Positions 5,686-40,356 of a DNA stretch of 64,000 bases are shown here, piece by piece; within the stretch, counting starts at the first letter, position 1, and every line of letters begins with the position of its first letter. This DNA comes from Candidatus Omnitrophota bacterium (GTDB taxonomy: Bacteria > Omnitrophota > Gorgyraeia > Zapsychrales > Fredricksoniimonadaceae), in NCBI GenBank assembly GCA_021731625.1, contig JAKFXC010000060.1:794-64793 (forward strand), written 5' to 3'. The notes under the pieces are model-generated. The model saw only the letters and a list, made by a program, of their open reading frames with translations, was not told where the DNA came from and did not search any database. A program made the translations under genes and the position numbers.

Positions 5686-6669
5686 TTAATGCACCAACTC
5701 TTCCACGGATTGTTTTTCCGACAATAATTCCTGTAAAGTGGTTTGAATTTTGGCTTTCGCAAAATCATTATGGGTTAAATCTTTGACGATTTCCCAAGAC
5801 TGGCCGTTGGAGCGCAAGGGAAAGCCGAACATCAGGCCCTGCGGCACCCCGTAACTGCCATCTGAAGATACGGCCGCGGAGAAGAATTCTCCGGACGGGG
5901 TGGGGGTGATAATGGCCCGCACGGTGCAGATGACCGCATTGGCTGCGGAGGCCGCGGACGACAGCCCGCGGGCTTTAATGATGGCCGCGCCCCGTTTTTG
6001 CACGGTCTCGATAAAGGCGCCCTGTAACCAGGCCAGGTCGGTAATGACCGTCGCGGCTGGCTTGCCGCTGATCGTGGCATTATAAAAATCAGGGTACTGG
6101 GTGGCGGAATGATTGCCCCAAATCCCTACTCTTTTAACGTCCAACACCGGCGCCTGGGCCTTAATGGCCAGTTGGGCGGCGGCCCGGTTCTGGTCCAACA
6201 TGGTCATGGCAAAGAAATTTGCCGCGGGAATACCGCTGCACACACTCTTAGCAATCCAAGCGTTTGTATTGCAAGGGTTTCCGACAACAAGCACCTTGCA
6301 GGTGGGTTTGGCATGGCTAGATAGGGCCTTGCCCTGTTCGATGAATACGCCGCCATTAATTTTAAGTAAATCGCCCCTCTCCATCCCTTCTTTGCGGGGA
6401 ACGCTGCCGACCAGCAAGGCCCAGTCAATGTCTTTGAACGCGACCTTGACGTCGCTGGAGATGGTAATAGATTTAAGTAAGGGGAAGGCGCAGTCTTCCA
6501 GCTCCATGACCACCCCACCAAGCGCCGGCAGGGCTTTTTCCAGTTCCAACAAATTAAGATCGATGGCTGTGTCTTTGCCGAATACCTCTCCTGCGGCAAT
6601 GCGAAACAACAAAGCATACCCGATTTGACCGGCCGCGCCGGTGACCGCCACTCTGACTCTATTTCCCAT
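5686..6669 (-). CDS. mdh: Malate dehydrogenase (NAD-dependent, LDH/MDH superfamily)
   Basis: [13 protein letters not shown] Rossmann motif and [15 protein letters not shown]. The ORF track start (6729) is probably too far upstream. Internal ATG at 6669 has a GGGGG RBS and gives [15 protein letters not shown]. Confidence 0.85.
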
Positions 6670-7447
6670 GCAGAACCCCCGGTAGTTTTTTCCTGGCGGC
6701 GTACACTTCACCCATATCAAGGTCGCCAAAAATGACTTCTTCTTTATTGTCGCTGCCGCGGGCCAGGATTTCGCCCCAGGGCGATACGATCATGCTGTTG
6801 CCGAATGCTTCGATGCCTCGGGCCCCGACGCCCACCTGGTTGGGGGCCAACACATACGACAGATTTTCAATGGCGCGGGCCCGCACGAGCGGCTCCCAAT
6901 GGGCCTCGCCGGTGTGGCGGGTAAAACACGCCGGCACGGTGAGCACATTGGCGCCTTGGCGACCGTAGCGCCGGTACAAATCGGGAAACCGCAAATCATA
7001 ACAAACGCTCAGTCCGATCTTAAATTTCCCGACGCTGCCCATGGCCTGCCGTCGTCCGGCGGCGAAACTATCCGATTCACGGATTATCTTATCATCGATG
7101 CAGGCGTCGAATAAGTGAATTTTGCGATATTTTGCCTCGACGTTGCCGAGGGGATTGATAAGGACCGAGGTGTTGTAGAGGCGCTGGCCCTGGCGCTCAT
7201 AAATGGAGCCGGCCAGAATGCTGACCGCGGTGCGGCGGGCGAGGCCTTGAAGGGTGCGGATGCTTTCGCCGTTGACGCTCTCCGCGCTGGCTTTAATGTG
7301 GCGAGGGTCAATCCGGCAGTGAAAAATTTCCGGCAGCAGCACAAATCTGGCGCCGCTGCCCACCGCATCGTTTATCATCTGCGATGCCCGTCGGAGATTC
7401 TCTTTCTTGTCCGGCGAAGCATTGAATTGGACCAGGGCTATGCGCAT
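6659..7447 (-). CDS. Carbon-nitrogen hydrolase family protein (nitrilase/omega-amidase-like)
   Basis: MRIALVQFN...FVLLPE...KIHLFD...[15 protein letters not shown] catalytic E-K-C pattern of CN hydrolases. Confidence 0.8.
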
Positions 7448-8130: not shown

Positions 8131-8392
8131 GTGCTGTCCTTTCTGTAAACTGTCTTGTCATCTGCGGCGACCCCAACGGGATTGCGCTCCAGCTTAAAAA
8201 ATCTATAGTCGCGCATTCAAAGCTTCCTTATCATAAAAACATTTGAAACTTTGAATGGAACCCATGCATTGTCAACGGCCTACCCAATGCATCTCAGCAG
8301 ACAACGTCGTTAGCTTAATGTTTTTGTCATCTGGGTTTCGGGTTCAATCGTGAGATCTTCAATTTCAAAATAGGGTAAACCCCTTTTGAAAT

Positions 8393-8469
8393 TGGCGACC
8401 CCAACGGGATTTGAACCCGTGCTGCAAGCTTGAAAAGCTTGTGTCCTGACCAGACTAGACGATGGGGTC
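8393..8469 (-). tRNA. tRNA-Glu (anticodon UUC), CCA encoded
   Basis: Minus-strand cloverleaf: acceptor GACCCCA/TGGGGTC, anticodon stem CAAGC/GCTTG with loop TTTTCAA, T-arm ACGGGTTCAAATCCCGT, 3' GCCA. Confidence 0.85.
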
Positions 8470-16452: not shown

Positions 16453-16472
16453 TTATCCACAGCTGTGGACAT
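16453..16472. promoter_or_regulatory. DnaA-box dyad TTATCCACA-GC-TGTGGACAT upstream of dnaA
   Basis: Perfect TTATCCACA at 16453-16461. Inverted partner at 16464-16472 with 2 mismatches to TGTGGATAA. Same architecture as the dyad at 15035-15054. Confidence 0.6.
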
Positions 16473-16523: not shown

Positions 16524-16765
16524 ATGTCCCTCGACCCTTCGGGCCAATCCTGCTTCGCAGTATTGGGGATTACCCCACTCATAAAAAACGCTCGGGGGTT
16601 ACCTCTCGGGACGAACGGCTTGTCCCTCGACCCTTCGGGCCAATCCTGCTTCGCAGTATTGGGGATTACCCCACTCATAAAAAACGCTCGGGGGTTACCT
16701 CTCGGGACGAACGGCTTGTCCCTCGACCCTTCGGGCCAATCCTGCTTCGCAGTATTGGGGATTAT
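16524..16765. repeat. Tandem repeat, 96-bp unit x about 2.5, between the DnaA boxes and rpmH
   Basis: Unit GTCCCTCGACCCTTCGGGCCAATCCTGCTTCGCAGTATTGGGGATTACCCCACTCATAAAAAACGCTCGGGGGTTACCTCTCGGGACGAACGGCTT repeated at 16524, 16620 and partially at 16716. Both strands give spurious repeat ORFs because the unit is 32 codons long. Confidence 0.85.
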
Positions 16766-23109: not shown

Positions 23110-23637
23110 GTGAAGAAAAAAATTGTCTTGGGGGTCTGCGGGAGCATTGCGGCCTATAAGGCCGGCGACATCATCCGCCGGCTGCAGGAGAAAGGTTGCG
23201 AGGTCTCGGTCATTATGACGACAGGGGCGCAGCAATTTATTACATCGCTAACGTTGGCCACGCTCTCCGGCAAAACCGTATACGGGGACATGTTCGACCC
23301 GCAGGGCTGGCAATTGGCGCACATTGATTTGGCCAAGGATGCGGACCTGGTCTTGATTGCCCCGGCAACGGCCAATGTGATATCCAAAATCGCGCACGGG
23401 ATGGCCGATGATTTCTTGACCACGTTTATATTGACGGTGCGGGCGCCGGTGGTGATCGCGCCGGCGATGCATGATGAGATGTACACCAATGCCATCGTCG
23501 TCGAGAATTGCGCGAAGCTTAAAAAACACGGCATCAAATTCGTGGAGCCGGTTAAAGGCAAGCTGGCCAACGGCGATATCGGGGTGGGGCATTTGGCGGA
23601 GGTGGAAACCATCGTCCAAGCGGCCATCGGCCAATGA
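23110..23637 (+). CDS. coaC: Phosphopantothenoylcysteine decarboxylase (flavoprotein, CoaC domain only)
   Basis: KIVLGVCGSIAAYKAGDIIRRL...LVLIAPATANVISKIAHGMADD flavoprotein signature. 175 aa, so no CoaB half. Confidence 0.8.
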   Translation: MKKKIVLGVCGSIAAYKAGDIIRRLQEKGCEVSVIMTTGAQQFITSLTLATLSGKTVYGDMFDPQGWQLAHIDLAKDADLVLIAPATANVISKIAHGMADDFLTTFILTVRAPVVIAPAMHDEMYTNAIVVENCAKLKKHGIKFVEPVKGKLANGDIGVGHLAEVETIVQAAIGQ

Positions 23638-24436
23638 GAGCAAAGTCGGCAATTTATGCCATTGCCGTGTTGTTTATAACAACGCAAGCGGTAATGGCAG
23701 ATACAACAAGCATTGATGAGATTAAAAAAAGCAATGCGCATAGCCATCAAAGAGTGAAATTTTCAACCCGTCTCAAGGATGGCAAATATTCTGAGGCGGA
23801 GAATGAGTTGAAGAAATGGGAACAACCGTATCCCGACGATAAACAAGAGATAGGAAACATGCGCGCGTTATTAGCTGGAGCAATCAAAGAAGATCCGCCT
23901 ACGGAAAAGGAAAAAAAGGCCCTGGATCAATTGATAGAACTGAGCAATCGGCTCTTAAGATTCAATGATCGGATGGCGCCTGCTGTGGAGAAATTAGAGG
24001 CGGCGCTATCAGACCCTCGAATAAGTGCGACGACCAGTAACGGGTTGATTTTGGAAACCATTAAGAAAGATGATGTTGAAGAATTGAAGAAACTCTTGCA
24101 TAAGGGCATAACCCAGACCAGGATAATTATCTAATACCAGTATTGCCGGAGGCTGCACACAAGGGGAATATTGCGATCATACAATTACTGTTAGACAAAG
24201 GTGTCAAGATTGACAAGACCAATTGGCATGGCAGGACGGCTTTAATGGTTGCTGCGAATAATAATCACTCGCAAGCTGTTGATTTATTGTTGAAATCAGG
24301 GGCCCAGGTAAATTTTAGAACCAATAGGGAAAATGAGACAGCCCTAGATTTTGCCCTGAAAAATAACAATGCCCAGATGGTTAAGCTGCTAAAGGATGCC
24401 GGGGGGCTTTCTTTTCCATCTGATAAAAAGGATTAG
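23634..24436 (+). pseudogene. Secreted ankyrin-repeat protein apparently split by a frameshift (two ORFs 23634-24134 and 24143-24436)
   Basis: ORF1 has a signal peptide and ends ELKKLLHKGITQTRIII*. Upstream of its TTG start, ORF2's frame already reads GHNPDQDNYLIPVLPEAAHKGNIAIIQLLLDKG then two clear ANK repeats. An ANK-like segment spans the frame junction near 24100-24134. Confidence 0.45.
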
Positions 24437-24454
24437 TCCCGGTTCTTCGAACAG

Positions 24455-24681
24455 GGTTATTTGGAATAGAAACATTGTGGCTGATGACCTCGCACTTGCC
24501 CTCTCTAGAAAGCTTATAAGGAAGCAAGTACTGCCCTCTGATTTTTCTAGAAGAATTTGCAAAAGTAAGATTGTGGCTGATGACGGCGCACTTGCTCTCT
24601 CTAGAAAGCTTATAAGGAAGCAAGTACTGCCCTCTGATTTTTCTAGAAGAATTTGCAAAAGTAAGATTGTGGTAATCAGAG
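24455..24681. repeat. Tandem repeat, 96-bp unit x about 2.3, directly upstream of tRNA-Cys
   Basis: ATTGTGGCTGATGAC... units start at 24474, 24570 and 24666. Each holds hairpin GCACTTGC/GCAAGTAC plus two TCTAGA-centred palindromes. The last unit's GCCCTCTGATT pairs with AATCAGAGGGC at the tRNA 5' end. Confidence 0.85.
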
Positions 24682-24756
24682 GGCGTGGTAGCCAAGTGGT
24701 AAGGCAGCGGTCTGCAAAACCGCTATTCACCGGTTCGATTCCGGTCCACGCCTCCA
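24682..24756 (+). tRNA. tRNA-Cys (anticodon GCA), CCA encoded
   Basis: Acceptor GGCGTGG/CCACGCC, anticodon loop CTGCAAA, T-arm ACCGGTTCGATTCCGGT, 3' TCCA. Confidence 0.85.
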
Positions 24757-24776
24757 AAAAATATCAAGGGAGATCG

Positions 24777-25067
24777 ATGTCGGAAGAAAGAAATCCCGTT
24801 ACTAGAATAGTTTTTTGCCTGCTTTGGTTGTTGCCAGTCATGATTGTCATACATTCCATCGTTGGAGGATTTGTTGGGGGCATAGCAGGACCTTCCGGCG
24901 AGGGAGTTGAGGATAGTTTTAATGCCGGAGCTAGGGCTTCGGCGGAGTTTTTTGCAAAAAATCGGTTGGCGATGACCGTCATCGACGTGGCTGTTTGGGG
25001 GTATTTGTGTTTTATTGGATGGTTGCCGGGCACAAGCACCATTAAGAAATCGAAAAAGAATACGTAA
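24777..25067 (+). CDS. Small hypothetical membrane protein (96 aa)
   Basis: ATG at 24777 with a GGGAG RBS, MSEERNPVTRIVFCLLWLLPVMIVIHSIVGG. The ORF-track version (24396) reads through the repeats and tRNA-Cys and is rejected upstream of this ATG. Confidence 0.4.
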   Translation: MSEERNPVTRIVFCLLWLLPVMIVIHSIVGGFVGGIAGPSGEGVEDSFNAGARASAEFFAKNRLAMTVIDVAVWGYLCFIGWLPGTSTIKKSKKNT

Positions 25068-25182
25068 AGATTGTGGCGACGGAGGGGCGCACTTGTTTTT
25101 CTTAGAACAACATTTAAGGAAACAAGTGCAGCCCTCAACTTTCTCTAGATATATGTATAAAAGAAAAATGGGGGTAAGTTGA

Positions 25183-25266
25183 GGGCGGGTGGTGGAACTG
25201 GTATACACGCAGGACTTAAAATCCTGTGACCGCAAGGTCATGAGGGTTCAATTCCCTCCCCGCCCA
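25183..25266 (+). tRNA. tRNA-Leu (anticodon UAA), no encoded CCA
   Basis: Acceptor GGGCGGG/CCCGCCC, anticodon loop CTTAAAA, long variable arm TGACCGCAAGGTCAT, T-arm GAGGGTTCAATTCCCTC. Confidence 0.85.
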
Positions 25267-25308
25267 TTTACAGGAACTCAAAAACGCAGAGAAAGAAAAA
25301 AATACAGC

Positions 25309-25383
25309 GGACCCGTAGCTCAGTTTGGTTAGAGCGTCTCCTTGACATGGAGAAGGTCAGAGGTTCGAGCCCCCTCGGGTCCA
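25309..25383 (+). tRNA. tRNA-Val (anticodon GAC), no encoded CCA
   Basis: Acceptor GGACCCG/CGGGTCC, D-arm GCTCAGTTTGGTTAGAGC, anticodon stem TCTCC/GGAGA with loop TTGACAT. Confidence 0.8.
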
Positions 25384-25396
25384 TTTTTAAAATTTT

Positions 25397-26032
25397 ATGA
25401 AAGGAAAAATCGCCATTATAGCTTCCTTGGTGAGTATTTTTACGGGAGTACCTTGCTCTGCACACGGGTTAAATCCCTATAAAGATGAGGGGAGGAACGT
25501 CATTTATAACCTCTTATTTTGCGATGATATTAAGTTATTCAAAAACGGCTCTGATGGTGAAGAGGAGCCGCCGTGGAGCATCCTGCTTTCCGAATCCGCA
25601 GATAAGGATGAACTCAAAAAAATTGGACAAGACCCCGCCGGTGAGACACGTTCGAGGATTTTGGCGTATAACAAATTGAGGCAACTGGGTGTAGAGATTG
25701 ACCGCCAAGAGTTATTAGGAATGATCGTCGAGTACGGTATCAATGGAGGCATAGATGTTGTGGCGGCATACACAGATGGCACCGCCAGGTATATTAATTA
25801 TTCCGGGAAATTAATTACTTACGAGGCCCATAACAAGGCGATCGATACCCGCATTACGGCATTTATGCACAATGGCCAGCGCATGGTTTCTAAAGCAGAC
25901 CCGCAAAACACACGGACTTCACCACCCCAACAGGGAGATGTCAAAATCACATTGCTGACCTCCGATGGTGTCTATATGAGAGAAGGGGAGTTCAATAAGC
26001 TCACTGAGGATGCAATTGGGGGACCGGTATGA
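25397..26032 (+). CDS. Secreted hypothetical protein
   Basis: N-terminal signal peptide (IAIIASLVSIFTGVPCSA). No recognisable domain. Confidence 0.55.
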   Translation: MKGKIAIIASLVSIFTGVPCSAHGLNPYKDEGRNVIYNLLFCDDIKLFKNGSDGEEEPPWSILLSESADKDELKKIGQDPAGETRSRILAYNKLRQLGVEIDRQELLGMIVEYGINGGIDVVAAYTDGTARYINYSGKLITYEAHNKAIDTRITAFMHNGQRMVSKADPQNTRTSPPQQGDVKITLLTSDGVYMREGEFNKLTEDAIGGPV

Positions 26033-29005: not shown

Positions 29006-30025
29006 ATGCACTGGGACTTTCAACAATTACAGGACGCTGCCCGCCAAGAAATTGAGTCCGTCACTGACGCGCACTCACTGGAATCTTTCCGCTTAAAATA
29101 TTTAGGCAAAAAAGGTCTGGTCGCCGATATTTTTCTTTCCCTGGCGTCTGCTTCTGCGGCAGAAAAGGGAGCCATCGGCAAAGGGGCCAATGACCTGCGC
29201 CATTTGGTCACTGCCTTAATCACGGACAAACAAAAGAAGGTTTCGAGTCAGCAACGCCCGGGAAGCCATCGGATTGATGTAACTATGCCCGGTGCGGTGC
29301 CAAACCTCGGCCATAGACACATCCTCACGCAGACCACCGAAGAAATTTGCCAGGTTTTTGAGAAGCTGGGGTTTGTTCTCGAGGAAGGCCCGGAGGTAGA
29401 GACGGAATTCAATAATTTCACCGGTTTAAATATCCCCATCGACCACCCCTCGCGCGATGCCTTCGACACATTTTATCTGCAGGCCTCTGATCTCACGGCC
29501 AAAGGCCGTAAGCTGCTGCTGAGAAGCCACACATCGCCGGGACAGGTGAGGGTCATGACCGCCCATAAGCCGCCCCTGGCCGTCATCATCCCCGGACGGG
29601 TCTACCGGCCCGACGCGGTGGACGCCAGCCATTCGTTCATGTTCCACCAAATCGAAGGATTGCTGGTTGACAAGAACATAAAATTTTCCGATCTAAAGGG
29701 CCTGCTTACCGAATTCTGCCGCCGGTTTTTCGGGCCGTCGGTTAAGATGCGTTTCCGGCCGCATTATTTTCCTTTTACGGAACCCTCGGCAGAAGTCGAC
29801 ATTGCCGCAGACATATTCAAGGGAACCAGCCGCAAACCGTGGCTGGAAATTTTAGGCTGTGGAATGGTCAATCCCAAGGTATTTGCTGTGGCCGGTTATC
29901 CGCCGGGAATATACACCGGCCTGGCCTTCGGCATGGGTGTCGAGCGCATGGCTATGCTTAGGCATGGAATTAGAGATATACGGATGTTTTACGAGAATGA
30001 TGTGCGGTTCTTAAACCAGTTTTAA
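29006..30025 (+). CDS. pheS: Phenylalanine--tRNA ligase alpha subunit
   Basis: Class II core (FRPHYFPFTEPSAEVD, GCGMVNPKV, GLAFGMGVERMAML). Confidence 0.9.
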   Translation: MHWDFQQLQDAARQEIESVTDAHSLESFRLKYLGKKGLVADIFLSLASASAAEKGAIGKGANDLRHLVTALITDKQKKVSSQQRPGSHRIDVTMPGAVPNLGHRHILTQTTEEICQVFEKLGFVLEEGPEVETEFNNFTGLNIPIDHPSRDAFDTFYLQASDLTAKGRKLLLRSHTSPGQVRVMTAHKPPLAVIIPGRVYRPDAVDASHSFMFHQIEGLLVDKNIKFSDLKGLLTEFCRRFFGPSVKMRFRPHYFPFTEPSAEVDIAADIFKGTSRKPWLEILGCGMVNPKVFAVAGYPPGIYTGLAFGMGVERMAMLRHGIRDIRMFYENDVRFLNQF

Positions 30026-32233: not shown

Positions 32234-32487
32234 AATTCCCTCAGTACGCAAACATTTGACAAAATCCAAAAAGTGCTATAATTGATGTTGAATCCTGCTC
32301 CGTGCGTCAGGGCTCGGATGTATTGAACCACAAAACTAACTCCAGGGAACTGGTTCTTGCAGATGCGCATAGTCGCTCTCACACTGGTTCCCACCTGTGA
32401 AAACAGGTTCTCATTACACCAGTCCAACGGCGGCGCGGGATTTTGTTTTTGATTTTCCGGTGATTTTCCGGATTTTCCGGATTTATC

Positions 32488-38631: not shown

Positions 38632-39279
38632 TTGTTGAACCGGATATTTAAGCCCCCGTATTTTTCGAAAGAAAATTTTACAAAGTTATTGTTCATTCTC
38701 ATTTGCGCGCTGGGCCTGCTTTTAGTTTACCGCCTGTTTATCTATAAATATTTAAACATGTGGTCGATGAACTGGAGGGTGGAAGGCAGCAGGTTTGTGG
38801 ACCGGGAATACCGTTTGTCGTTTCAGCTGCCGCCAGGCACGGCACCTTATAGGGCCTGGGGGTCTGGGGCAGTCATGAGGGAAATGGAGTTAAACTGGAG
38901 CGGCTCAGATTACCTGCGCAGCGACTACTCCTTAAAAATATCCTATGATAAAATCAGGACGGAAGAACAGTCAGAGACGCAATTGATCCAAAGGGCCATG
39001 GCTTGGAAATCTACACAAGTCAACACATGGTATCCCAACGTGCAGTTTAAAGACATTGAATTGCTCAACAGTGAGAACAGGGTTGTGGGTATTTTGACGT
39101 ACACGATGCCAACCCGGGAACGGTCCGAGCAGTGCTTTTATTTTGTTAAGGACGGGTATATTGTCGGGATTACTTATGCGGCAGGCACGAGAAGACTGGA
39201 CCGCTTGAATCAGGATAAACTCAGACGTATGTTTGGAGCCGTCGCTGAGAGTTTTGAGGGGGGTTTGAACAGGTTGTGA
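38632..39279 (+). CDS. Hypothetical membrane-anchored protein
   Basis: TTG start after an AGGGAGG RBS. One N-terminal TM helix (LLFILICALGLLLVYRLFIY). No recognisable domain. Confidence 0.45.
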   Translation: MLNRIFKPPYFSKENFTKLLFILICALGLLLVYRLFIYKYLNMWSMNWRVEGSRFVDREYRLSFQLPPGTAPYRAWGSGAVMREMELNWSGSDYLRSDYSLKISYDKIRTEEQSETQLIQRAMAWKSTQVNTWYPNVQFKDIELLNSENRVVGILTYTMPTRERSEQCFYFVKDGYIVGITYAAGTRRLDRLNQDKLRRMFGAVAESFEGGLNRL

Positions 39280-39307
39280 ATGGAAGCGTGCCCTGCGTAA
39301 CGAATTG

Positions 39308-39680
39308 CCCTGCCCTGATTTTTCTAGAATTGACAATAAGGTAGTCAGGACTGGGCAATATTTTTCTAGATGTTGTTCTTTTAGAATTGTGGAAATATTT
39401 GCCCTGCCCTGATTTTTCTAGAATTGACACTAAGGTAGTCAGGACTGGGCAATATTTTTCTAGATGTTGTTCTTTTAGAATTGTGGAAATATTTGCCCTG
39501 CCCTGATTTCTCTAGAATTGACACTAAGGTAGTCAGGACTGGGCAATATTTTTCTAGATGTTGTTCTTTTAGAATTGTGGGAATATTTGCCCTGCCCTTG
39601 CTTTTTAGAAGAAAAGCATAAGGAAGCAGGGACTAGGGCAAATTTTTCTTAAAGTAGTTCTTATAATTTTTTGGAAATTT
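39308..39680. repeat. Tandem repeat, 93-94-bp unit x about 3 plus a diverged proximal unit, directly upstream of tRNA-Gln
   Basis: Units start at 39308, 39401, 39495 and 39589 (GCCCTGCCCTGATTTTTCTAGAATTGACA...TCAGGACTGGGCAATATTTTTCTAGATG...). Each begins with a copy of the tRNA-Gln 5' acceptor sequence TGCCCTG. Shares the ATAAGGAAGCA and CCCTGATTTTTCTAGAA motifs with the tRNA-Cys and tRNA-Leu leaders. Confidence 0.85.
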
Positions 39681-39751
39681 GCCCTGTCGTCTAACGGTAG
39701 GACCCAAGATTCTGGATCTTGTTGTCTAGGTTCGAATCCTAGCGGGGCAAT
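39681..39751 (+). tRNA. tRNA-Gln (anticodon CUG), no encoded CCA
   Basis: U1-A72 acceptor TGCCCTG/CGGGGCA, anticodon stem CAAGA/TCTTG with loop TTCTGGA, T-arm CTAGGTTCGAATCCTAG. Confidence 0.8.
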
Positions 39752-39832
39752 TTTTAAACACAACCTCCTGTGATTAGATAAATTGCAGGAGCTTTTTTTT
39801 GACTTGACAGCCACAAGAGGCGTGTATACAAT

Positions 39833-40111
39833 TTGTATATACAAATGAACATAGAAAACATCTCATGGAATCCATTAAAAAACGAGCGCTTAAAGAAAAC
39901 GCGAGGCATTTCGTTTGAAGAAATTATTATCTCCAAATTGATCGATATACGTAAACATCTCAAAAAGGATACTCAGAGGATATTGATTTATAAATGTAGA
40001 GGTTATATTTGGGCCGTTCCGTTTGTCAAAATAGAGAGCGGGATATTTTTGAAAACCATCTATCCGAGTCGCAAATTTACAAAGATGTACAAAGAGGGAG
40101 GAATCTTATGA
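39833..40111 (+). CDS. brnT: BrnT-family (DUF497) type II toxin ribonuclease
   Basis: WNPLKNERLKKTRGISFEEII...ILIYKCRGYIWAVPFVKIESGIFLKTIYPSRK matches the BrnT pattern. Confidence 0.7.
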   Translation: MYIQMNIENISWNPLKNERLKKTRGISFEEIIISKLIDIRKHLKKDTQRILIYKCRGYIWAVPFVKIESGIFLKTIYPSRKFTKMYKEGGIL

Positions 40112-40356
40112 GAGTCATCAAATTAACAAGGGAAGAGCGTGAGATCGAAGAGAATATCGAAAAATTTGTCCCGGTGGATAAGAAAGAATTCGAAACCATC
40201 GTTCGAGCCTTGGAGGCCCGGAAGAAGGACGCCGTGTTAAATATTCGGGTCAGCAAGTATGACCTGGACAGCATAAAGCAAAAAGCAGCTCAGCTGGGAA
40301 TTCGATACCAGACGCTTATTTCTGAGATTTTGCACAGAGTAGCTCAGGCCTCATAA
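40108..40356 (+). CDS. brnA: BrnA-family antitoxin
   Basis: ATGA overlap with the brnT stop. C-terminal IRVSKYDLDSIKQKAAQLGIRYQTLISEILHRVA typical of BrnA. Confidence 0.7.
   Translation: MRVIKLTREEREIEENIEKFVPVDKKEFETIVRALEARKKDAVLNIRVSKYDLDSIKQKAAQLGIRYQTLISEILHRVAQAS

Follow-up and report, generated by a model that had tools for sequence, protein, structure and literature searches.

Why should several transfer RNA (tRNA) genes of one genome be preceded by the same repeated, hairpin-forming sequence? The question is raised by a 64,000-nucleotide stretch of a Candidatus Omnitrophota bacterium (assembly GCA_021731625.1, contig JAKFXC010000060.1, positions 794 to 64,793 of the forward strand), hereafter the window, in which modules of about 95 bp stand directly 5' of the genes for tRNA-Cys, tRNA-Leu and tRNA-Gln. 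A sequence-only reading had described them as a structured, duplication-prone 5' module shared by different tRNAs, and had offered two explanations, a common promoter or processing leader and the footprint of repeated site-specific recombination. The sharing was confirmed, both for the three tRNAs of the window and for tRNA-Arg and tRNA-Leu in other genomes. What that reading missed is that the base of the hairpin stem is specific to the tRNA downstream while its tip is conserved.

The cassette is real and its copies are confined to tRNA flanks. TRF delimits a 96-bp period at 24459-24672, 5' of tRNA-Cys (2.2 copies, 94% matches, close to the 2.3 units first proposed), and a 94-bp period at 39305-39606, 5' of tRNA-Gln (3.2 copies, 97% matches); in all there are 2.2 units before Cys, one before Leu and four before Gln. 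The single Leu copy (25068-25182) is diverged, as had been claimed, with 83/110 positions identical to the Cys unit (z=15.7 against shuffles). The motifs listed at the outset, namely ATTGTGG, GGCGCACTTG, the hairpin arms GCACTTGC/GCAAGTAC and GCACTTGTTT/AAACAAGTGC, the TAAGGAAGCA box (TAAGGAAACA at Leu) and the TCTAGA palindromes, can all be read directly in the modules. Perfect 8-bp palindromes occur twice per unit, spaced 42-46 bp, and TTCTAGAA is found five times in the window (0.68 expected), four of them inside modules. A composite pattern built from three conserved boxes (TAGAA-N5-9-TAAGG-N15-28-TCTAGA) has six matches in the 64 kb against 0 expected, all within the Cys, Leu and Gln arrays, with no module copy elsewhere in the window. 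In the window we thus found neither the many non-tRNA copies of a generic dispersed repeat nor a coincidence limited to one locus, further tRNAs here and in other genomes carrying the module. Two of the five window tRNAs, tRNA-Val (25309-25383) and tRNA-Glu (8393-8469, reverse strand), both called by ARAGORN and Rfam, have none.

Aligning the units revealed a common plan. Each starts with a -10-like hexamer (TAAGAT, TAGAAT, TAAAGT or TATAAT) and TGTGG, followed by a leader of 5-9 nt, mainly A-rich, and by 3-8 nt that repeat, exactly or nearly, the start of the tRNA downstream. An inner stem, different in sequence among module types, leads to the conserved hairpin tip, TTTTCTAGAA-N6-7-TAAGGAAG (UUUUCUAGAA...UAAGGAAG), the pyrimidine and purine halves of which are able to pair with each other via G.U pairs. 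Past the tip come the inner-stem complement, a bulge of 1-4 nt (usually ACT) and an outer 3' arm that is the complement of the leader and the tRNA 5'-end copy. The unit then ends with TTTTT (this T-run follows the 3' arm in the Cys, Gln and Arg modules) into the second of its TCTAGA palindromes (Box1 and Box2 below) and a 15-20-nt A/T-rich spacer, after which comes the next -10-like box. The place held by the hairpin in the other units is taken in the last one by the real tRNA, and the layout looks, from its sequence, like a gutted tRNA transcription unit, the body of which would have been replaced by the conserved tip. The copied segment of Gln (ATTTGCCCTG, 10 nt) consists of the leader end plus tRNA nucleotides 1-8 and stops where the acceptor strand ends; elsewhere, the copies comprise 13 nt before a tRNA-Leu (AGTTTTGGGCGGG, locus L166) and the leader plus GCGCCTG before a tRNA-Arg (locus L029).

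An 11-bp segment complementary to the tRNA leader had been placed at the end of the module. Its complementarity is real and beyond chance by shuffling, but it forms the base of the hairpin 3' arm, 33-37 nt upstream of the leader, and not the end of the module. In the last unit of all three loci this arm makes 11 perfect base pairs with the true leader and the first 3-7 tRNA nucleotides. At Cys, GCCCTCTGATT (24629-24639) is the exact complement of AATCAGAGGGC (24674-24684; p about 0.0005); at Leu, GCCCTCAACTT (25131-25141) is complementary to AAGTTGAGGGC, that is, to the leader and first 4 nt of the tRNA (p<0.0005); and at Gln, where a module had also been announced, the same rule holds, AGGGCAAATTT (39635-39645) pairing without mismatch with AAATTTGCCCT (39675-39685; p<=0.0005). 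At tRNA-Val, and at ten tRNAs of relatives that have no module, there is no comparable 11-bp match. Homology between the Cys and Leu cassettes extends all through the leader (GGTAATCAGAGGGCG vs GGTAAGTTGAGGGCG), and where their leaders differ (TCA/GTT) the 3' arms answer with TGA/AAC. Arm pairing was judged with a matrix of duplex energies for cognate and non-cognate combinations, instead of column-wise covariation, because bulges shift the register between module types. The 3' arms generally pair best with the 5' arm of their own type, and the best leader for every 3' arm is that of its own tRNA; the Cys 3' arm even pairs with the true leader at -22.0 kcal/mol, against -13.6 kcal/mol with the 5' arm of its own module. 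The pairing of 3' arm and true leader could also be a mere consequence of the repeat structure.

The Cys array, on the forward strand like the other two, opens with a partial spacer at its left edge (24459-24471, ATTTGGAATAGAA, where the TRF array starts), homologous to ATTTGCAAAAGTA of the full units. Module 1 (24472-24567, 96 bp) contains ACATTGTGG, a 5' arm, Box1 (TCTAGAA), TAAGGAAG (24517), the 3' arm GCAAGTACTGCCCTCTGATT, the T-run with Box2 (TTCTAGAA, 24545-24552) and the spacer. Module 2 (24568-24663, 96 bp) has its 5' arm GGCGCACTTGC at 24585-24595, Box1 (TCTAGA) at 24600-24605, TAAGGAAG at 24613-24620, the 3' arm at 24620-24639 and the T-run plus Box2 at 24638-24648. The proximal segment (24662-24681), made of TAAGAT (24662-24667), TGTGG (24668-24672) and the leader TAATCAGAG (24673-24681), leads directly into tRNA-Cys (GCA; 24682-24756, forward strand; ARAGORN, and Rfam RF00005 with 70.2 bits), which stands at the hairpin position of the last unit. 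A mechanical open reading frame (ORF) of 223 aa (24396-25067, forward strand) runs in frame across both Cys modules, tRNA-Cys and a small membrane-protein ORF that probably begins at ATG 24777; annotation pipelines could miscall this spurious ORF.

The Leu module and its proximal leader (25068-25182) comprise AGATTGTGG (25068-25076), the 5' arm GGAGGGGCGCACTTGTTT (25081-25098), Box1 TTCTTAGAA, TAAGGAAA (25115-25122), the 3' arm (25120-25141), Box2 TCTAGA (25144-25149), TATAAA (25156-25161) and the leader AAGTTGA (25176-25182) of tRNA-Leu (UAA; 25183-25266, forward strand). In the Gln array, the first unit, module 0 (39297-39382; hairpin ATTGCCCTG...CTGGGCAAT), is without 12 nt (TGGAAATATTTG) of the other units, apparently lost by deletion between TTG repeats. 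Modules 1 and 2 (39383-39570) are 94 bp each and 97% alike, with TAGAAT, TGTGG, the leader AAATAT, then TTGCCCTG (nucleotides 1-8 of tRNA-Gln), the inner stem CCTGA/TCAGG, the tip TTTTTCTAGAATTGACACTAAGGTAG, the 3' arm ACTGGGCAATATTTTT and Box2 TCTAGA. Module 3 with its proximal segment (39571-39678) is diverged and nearest to the Cys type, with TATAAT at 39662-39667 and the leader GGAAAT; tRNA-Gln (CUG; 39679-39751, forward strand) follows and then a conventional terminator (39765-39791).

Predicted as RNA, most of these hairpins are more stable than their shuffled versions. The minimum free energies were -37.1 kcal/mol for the Leu hairpin of the window (LeuW, z -4.9), -25.7 for Gln1 (z -2.95), -29.0 for Gln3 (z -2.6), -27.5 for the L029 Arg hairpin (z -2.6) and -26.9 for the L166 Leu hairpin (z -3.8). 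In four of the six module types the tRNA strand folds better than its complement, with 4-6 G.U pairs, and this strand bias mildly favours, as far as folding models go, a structure acting at the RNA level on the tRNA strand. In predicted read-through precursors the leader and initial acceptor nucleotides of the tRNA lie in a helix with the module 3' arm, and for Gln and Leu the module 5' arm also pairs with the tRNA 3' acceptor strand.

Around the hairpins there are candidate signals for starting and stopping transcription. In the Cys, Gln and Arg modules TTTTT comes at the end of stable hairpins (-23 to -37 kcal/mol), and -10-like hexamers, as putative promoter elements, lie 11-14 nt before the tRNA +1 position or before the hairpin at Cys, Gln and the L029 Arg. 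At Leu the sole -10 candidate is TATAAA, 21 nt upstream. The tRNA-Glu of the window has an ordinary promoter (TTGACG-17-TATAAT).

A first possibility was that the cassette is the common promoter or processing leader of a lineage. The window PheS (29006-30025) is identical to an NCBI protein on a 69-kb contig, and its homologues named Omnitrophica/Omnitrophota are more distant (about 70% identical). Through PheS homologues we reached syntenic relatives (PheS 76-79% identical), and their Cys, Leu, Val and Gln loci are without the module, the module-less tRNAs abutting the upstream gene or having an ordinary promoter. In L001, Leu, Cys and Val are packed between a flavoprotein gene and thrS; in L169, Cys, Leu, Val and Gln abut upstream genes; and in L173, which has no module at Cys, Val or Gln, tRNA-Gln shows a canonical TTGACC-17-TATAAT where the window has its array, and upstream of tRNA-Leu there are just 15 nt copied from its 5' end (6541-6555), followed by a box-like ACATTAAGAAGC. 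Only L166 has a diverged module, before tRNA-Leu, with TATAAT, a duplication of the leader AGTTTT plus GGGCGGG, the conserved tip TTTTTCTTGGGAAGATTTTAAGGAAA, an inner stem changed to GCAATTT/AAATTGC, and no second TCTAGA box. No composite boxes were found at the other loci examined in relatives. A leader conserved throughout the lineage is not supported by this distribution. As to a promoter, the modules offer -10-like hexamers and no sigma-70-type -35/-10 pair was found in them.

Sequence collections were scanned with the pattern TAGAAN{5,8}TAAGGWARN{12,24}TTYTCTAGA, which is too stringent to catch diverged copies and not selective enough to keep out chance matches. Among 185,579 species representatives (the window's own genome not being one of them) it gave 42 loci, one of them real (L029); metagenome contigs gave at least 120 loci, none beside a tRNA among the matches listed; and the 13 loci from viral contigs were all chance matches in coding sequences. 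Related cassettes are present in three other Omnitrophota metagenome-assembled genomes (MAGs), 5' of tRNA-Arg or tRNA-Leu, and in the scans run they appear restricted to Omnitrophota. L029 is a MAG of another clade of the phylum (its FtsA is 74-78% identical to proteins named Omnitrophica, and 58% identical to the FtsA on the 1.34-Mb contig containing L001). Its cassette precedes tRNA-Arg(UCG) and has the same tip, T-run, Box2 and TTGTGGTAAT, on a stem base (GCGCCTG) equal to the acceptor strand of its tRNA-Arg. In L190 (FtsA 85% identical to that of L029) a decayed orthologous cassette stands before the same tRNA-Arg; it retains the acceptor copy and the TTAAGG box, has a ~55-nt insertion, has lost Box2 and gives a z of -1.2, and its inner stem shows a compensatory change (GTCGC/GCGAC in L029, GCCGC/GCGGC in L190). 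The L029 cassette is 79/94 identical to Gln3 of the window (z=14; z 7-10 against the other window units), compared with z=6.4 only against its own orthologue in L190, and the L029 and L190 loci have no other nucleotide similarity to the window. Distant genomes alike, close ones decayed and different tRNAs involved make up the pattern of lateral spread followed by decay, not that of a conserved host leader, and the retargeting of both stem-base arms to each tRNA is unlike simple dispersed repeats.

Other partial duplications were observed around tRNA genes of these relatives. In L029 (4698-4754, 20 nt of tRNA-Arg) and in L173 (the 15 nt of tRNA-Leu) the intact gene has, 37-48 nt upstream, a truncated direct copy of its 5' end, which indicates that partial duplication at tRNA 5' ends recurs in these lineages. 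In L166 (6810-6925) a tRNA-Val-like remnant follows tRNA-Val; its 5' part is diverged and a long hairpin replaces the anticodon arm, its T arm and acceptor 3' strand are intact and end in CCA, and ARAGORN does not call it. In L001 about 55 bp with the thrS ribosome-binding site and first codons are duplicated (6478-6535 / 6848-6900), the duplicate following tRNA-Leu closely and lying 370 bp before the true start of thrS.

The explanation that we tentatively favour, with a probability of roughly 40%, is that of a laterally spreading, recombination-amplified pseudo-tRNA cassette acting in cis as terminator and promoter. It would have arisen at the 5' end of a tRNA gene and multiplied there, the repeated promoter-leader-acceptor segments recombining unequally to produce the 96- and 94-bp arrays. 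The cassette would then have been copied to further tRNA loci (locally between Leu and Cys, in either direction) and spread between genomes before decaying. We infer from the arrangement of the signals that the long hairpin and its U-tract may stop or process transcripts coming from the upstream gene or unit, that the -10 box of the spacer may restart transcription a few nucleotides before the tRNA, and that in read-through RNA the 3' arm could pair with the genuine leader and first acceptor nucleotides and so occlude the RNase P site. If transcribed as predicted, the cassettes would be compact natural insulators combining a terminator and a promoter, and they may also allow control in cis of the access of RNase P; if mobile, they would be a rare case of an element directed to the 5' ends of tRNA genes, with one arm matched to the target. 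The cassettes mark the tRNA 5' flanks as recombination hot spots in Omnitrophota, which affects the assembly and annotation of MAGs.

Several results weigh against this explanation. There are 0 sigma-70-type -35/-10 pairs (16-18-nt spacer) in 24300-25500, and the sole site of this type in 39100-39900 lies downstream of tRNA-Gln and not in the Gln modules, so that the -10-like boxes are the only candidate promoter elements. A terminator consensus scan calls none of the module hairpins, because their loops and bulges fall outside the rules of the scan, and the Leu module is poor in U-tract. For Cys the hairpin is weak (z -0.9), and in the fold of minimum energy Box1 pairs with Box2 instead. Mechanically, the scheme leaves unexplained how a new cassette gains both the copy and the complement of a tRNA 5' end. 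In Cys and Leu, moreover, the match of the 3' arm is closer with the leader than with the acceptor 3' strand, and a simple origin by replacement of the core of a tRNA gene therefore suits Gln and Arg better than these two. Finally, the modules and remnants are known from just five genomes, at the loci and contigs examined.

A bolder proposal is that we are dealing with a new class of tRNA-specific element, its base re-written for each target tRNA and its tip constant, either a homing mobile element or a cis-regulatory RNA; we regard it as possible, though improbable on present data. The mobile version could home to tRNA 5' ends by base complementarity, and the regulatory one could gate RNase P processing or release minihelix mimics of the acceptor stem. 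We know of no dedicated structured 5' cassettes of bacterial tRNA genes that are base-pair-matched to the individual tRNA, and the proposal, if true, would add a layer not known before to the tRNA gene biology of an uncultivated phylum.

Part of the recombination idea survives. The cassettes could be footprints or miniature non-autonomous derivatives of integrative elements site-specific for tRNA 5' ends, with the promoter-leader-acceptor repeat as the att core duplicated at each integration, arrays as successive integrations, and the TCTAGA palindromes (two per unit, and TTCTAGAA in excess) as sites for a recombinase or accessory protein. Expression of the tRNA would then depend on a promoter and leader brought in by the element itself. 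The geometry, core, insert, and core with the rest of the tRNA, in tandem, is what one would expect, and a direct repeat of the tRNA 5' end does flank the insert (10 nt in Gln, 13 nt in the L166 Leu, 8 nt in the L029 Arg), truncated 5' copies of other lengths (20 nt in L029, 15 nt in L173) being found in relatives. The distribution is sporadic, with a similarity across lineages exceeding that between orthologues, and the genes around the loci are accessory (ankyrin-repeat ORFs, two orphan ORFs and the BrnT/BrnA-like pair described below). However, no integrase, transposase or reverse transcriptase, nor any other recombinase, was found by a Pfam scan of about 45 of the 63 window ORF candidates, those flanking the modules included. 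The inserts are only about 65 bp, and nothing in this scheme tells why each insert should bear a complement of its core. The compensatory changes and the G.U pairs speak instead for selection on, or correction of, the hairpin. Known systems share with the modules a tRNA-segment direct repeat bracketing foreign DNA, an intact tRNA regenerated and possible tandem accretion; they differ in coming with an integrase gene and in using the 3' part of the tRNA, as Williams reportedly described in 2002 for tRNA-targeting integrases, and not its 5' end. We consider an integrative origin unlikely.

That the modules are functional RNAs seems doubtful to us, either as a cis processing switch hiding or exposing the RNase P site, or as acceptor-stem minihelix mimics freed from the array by RNase P or RNase III, which would titrate or recruit a reader of acceptor stems (RNase P, the CCA-adding enzyme, a synthetase or a tRNA-targeting toxin). 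The copy stopping at the end of the acceptor strand (nucleotides 7-8) in Gln, Arg and the L166 Leu would suit such a role, as would a stem that changes in sequence with its pairing kept, G.U pairs that let the tRNA strand fold better than the complement, a tip conserved across distant genomes, and predicted precursors in which the module 3' arm sequesters the leader and first acceptor nucleotides. A function of this kind is harder to reconcile with orthologous copies that decay fast (the ~55-nt insertion in L190, Box2 lost there and in L166), with modules missing in most relatives and present at only three of the five window tRNAs, and with the weak Cys hairpin and the lack of an Rfam match. 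Equally doubtful is a neutral origin by replication slippage and template switching in the 5' flanks of tRNA genes, in which tandem duplication would make the arrays, quasi-palindrome correction would keep the arms complementary without selection, and the shared boxes would reflect common descent only: near-identical array copies (97% and 94%) imply recent duplication, and the 12-nt deletion between TTG repeats in Gln unit 0, the other partial tRNA duplications in relatives (L173, L029 and the tRNA-Val-like remnant of L166) and the decay of orthologues would all fit, yet an 84% identity of a ~95-bp non-coding unit across clades whose FtsA are about 58% identical, with closer orthologues more diverged, does not, and the retargeting of the arms to four different tRNAs is left unexplained.

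As had been stated, the modules do not correspond to a standard described element. They match no family of Rfam 15, T-box leaders included, the only hits being to generic miRNA precursors (13-24 bits against thresholds of 84-211). In the two regions cmscan found RF00005 at E up to 10 in the four true tRNAs only, with none in the modules, and ARAGORN called no tRNA inside them. A loose descriptor scan (the TAAG-box in any hairpin of >=11 bp) returned only noise beyond the known modules.

Closest in organization are arrays in which tandem units beside a tRNA each carry a partial tRNA copy, an arrangement found here too, as an analogy and not as homology. The units of the E. coli tyrT operon are about 178 bp long, each with a short copy of a tRNA terminal segment. 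In PMC3318445, which cites Bosl and Kersten 1991, the tandem repeat units beside the tRNA are described as co-transcribed with it, one of them giving rise to the rtT/rttR small RNA. Both systems have tandem units directly beside a tRNA gene, in arrays prone to unequal recombination, but the tyrT units are found downstream, with a copy of the 3' end of the tRNA, whereas the modules lie upstream and copy the 5' end; the former also lack a tip common to different tRNAs, a leader-complementary arm and any sequence kinship to the modules. Plastid trnL-trnF spacers of Brassicaceae and Solanaceae contain partial trnF copies in arrays upstream of the functional gene, which are clade-specific and variable in copy number (PMC3786074). 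The modules differ from them in copying the leader and acceptor 5' strand only, on a body made of a conserved non-tRNA tip, and in that one cassette serves four tRNA species; the trnF arrays have no tip shared among different tRNAs and no leader-complementary arm.

Intergenic hairpin repeats of bacteria, such as REP/BIME, ERIC, Correia and the RUP-type miniature inverted-repeat transposable elements (MITEs), are non-coding, laterally distributed and 35-150 bp long, and give long imperfect transcript hairpins that can be terminators, processing sites or promoters. The modules are likewise short, non-coding and hairpin-forming. Those families, however, have conserved terminal inverted repeats and many intergenic sites, and in the window and the loci of relatives examined the modules show neither: the stem bases of Cys/Leu, Gln, Arg and L166 differ and follow the tRNA next to them, only cognate arms pair well, conservation is limited to the tip and spacer, and every copy seen, including the six pattern matches of the window, is 5' of a tRNA. 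At these loci the modules thus do not fit a MITE or REP-like repeat.

Further identities were rejected on simple grounds. A CRISPR array does not apply, as the repeats comprise whole 94-96-bp units with the spacers between hairpins included, and neither does a protein-coding repeat, the Gln array not being covered by any ORF on either strand. T-box-like UGGN:discriminator pairing has N mismatched for Arg, Cys and Leu; a sigma-54 promoter would have the wrong GG-GC spacing; a DnaA box within TGTGGAAAT reaches 7/9 at best; a primer-binding site for a tRNA 3' end would need the TGG that is not adjacent to the acceptor copy; and an invertible promoter would have only 33-37 bp between its inverted repeats. 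The orphan ORF at 25397-26032 is no companion of the module, since its homologues are <=49% identical and stand in unrelated contexts. A leader peptide or a hairpin sequestering a Shine-Dalgarno sequence is excluded by the lack of a start codon at a consistent distance past TAAGGAAG. On the reverse strand, at 8215-8256, an 11-bp hairpin (ATTCAAAGTTT/AAGCTTTGAAT) has a loop ending in TAAGGAAG immediately before an ATG, where it is a probable Shine-Dalgarno sequence, and the module box thus resembles a ribosome-binding site; in the modules no start codon follows it.

With respect to the neighbourhood, two adjoining ORFs of the same strand (23634-24436), the second with ankyrin repeats, lie between the flavoprotein gene and tRNA-Cys, and are extra compared to the syntenic relatives examined; a single gene broken by a frameshift or stop may account for both. 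Right after tRNA-Gln and its terminator there is a pair of small ORFs (39833-40356), the first without a Pfam match and the second with a weak match to the CopG antitoxin family, under the Pfam cut-off; by its sequence the pair may be a BrnT/BrnA-like toxin-antitoxin, and it is another sign of tRNA flanks collecting accessory DNA. An unrelated 96-bp unit (16525-16764, 2.5 copies, 100% identity) occupies the dnaA-rpmH intergenic region, about 65 bp from a consensus DnaA box (TTATCCACA, 16453-16461), and could be part of the origin or of the dnaA promoter region, or an assembly effect. Lastly, a 6S/SsrS RNA (Rfam RF00013, 60.2 bits against a gathering score of 46.4) is encoded at 32289-32445 on the forward strand, just downstream of pheT.

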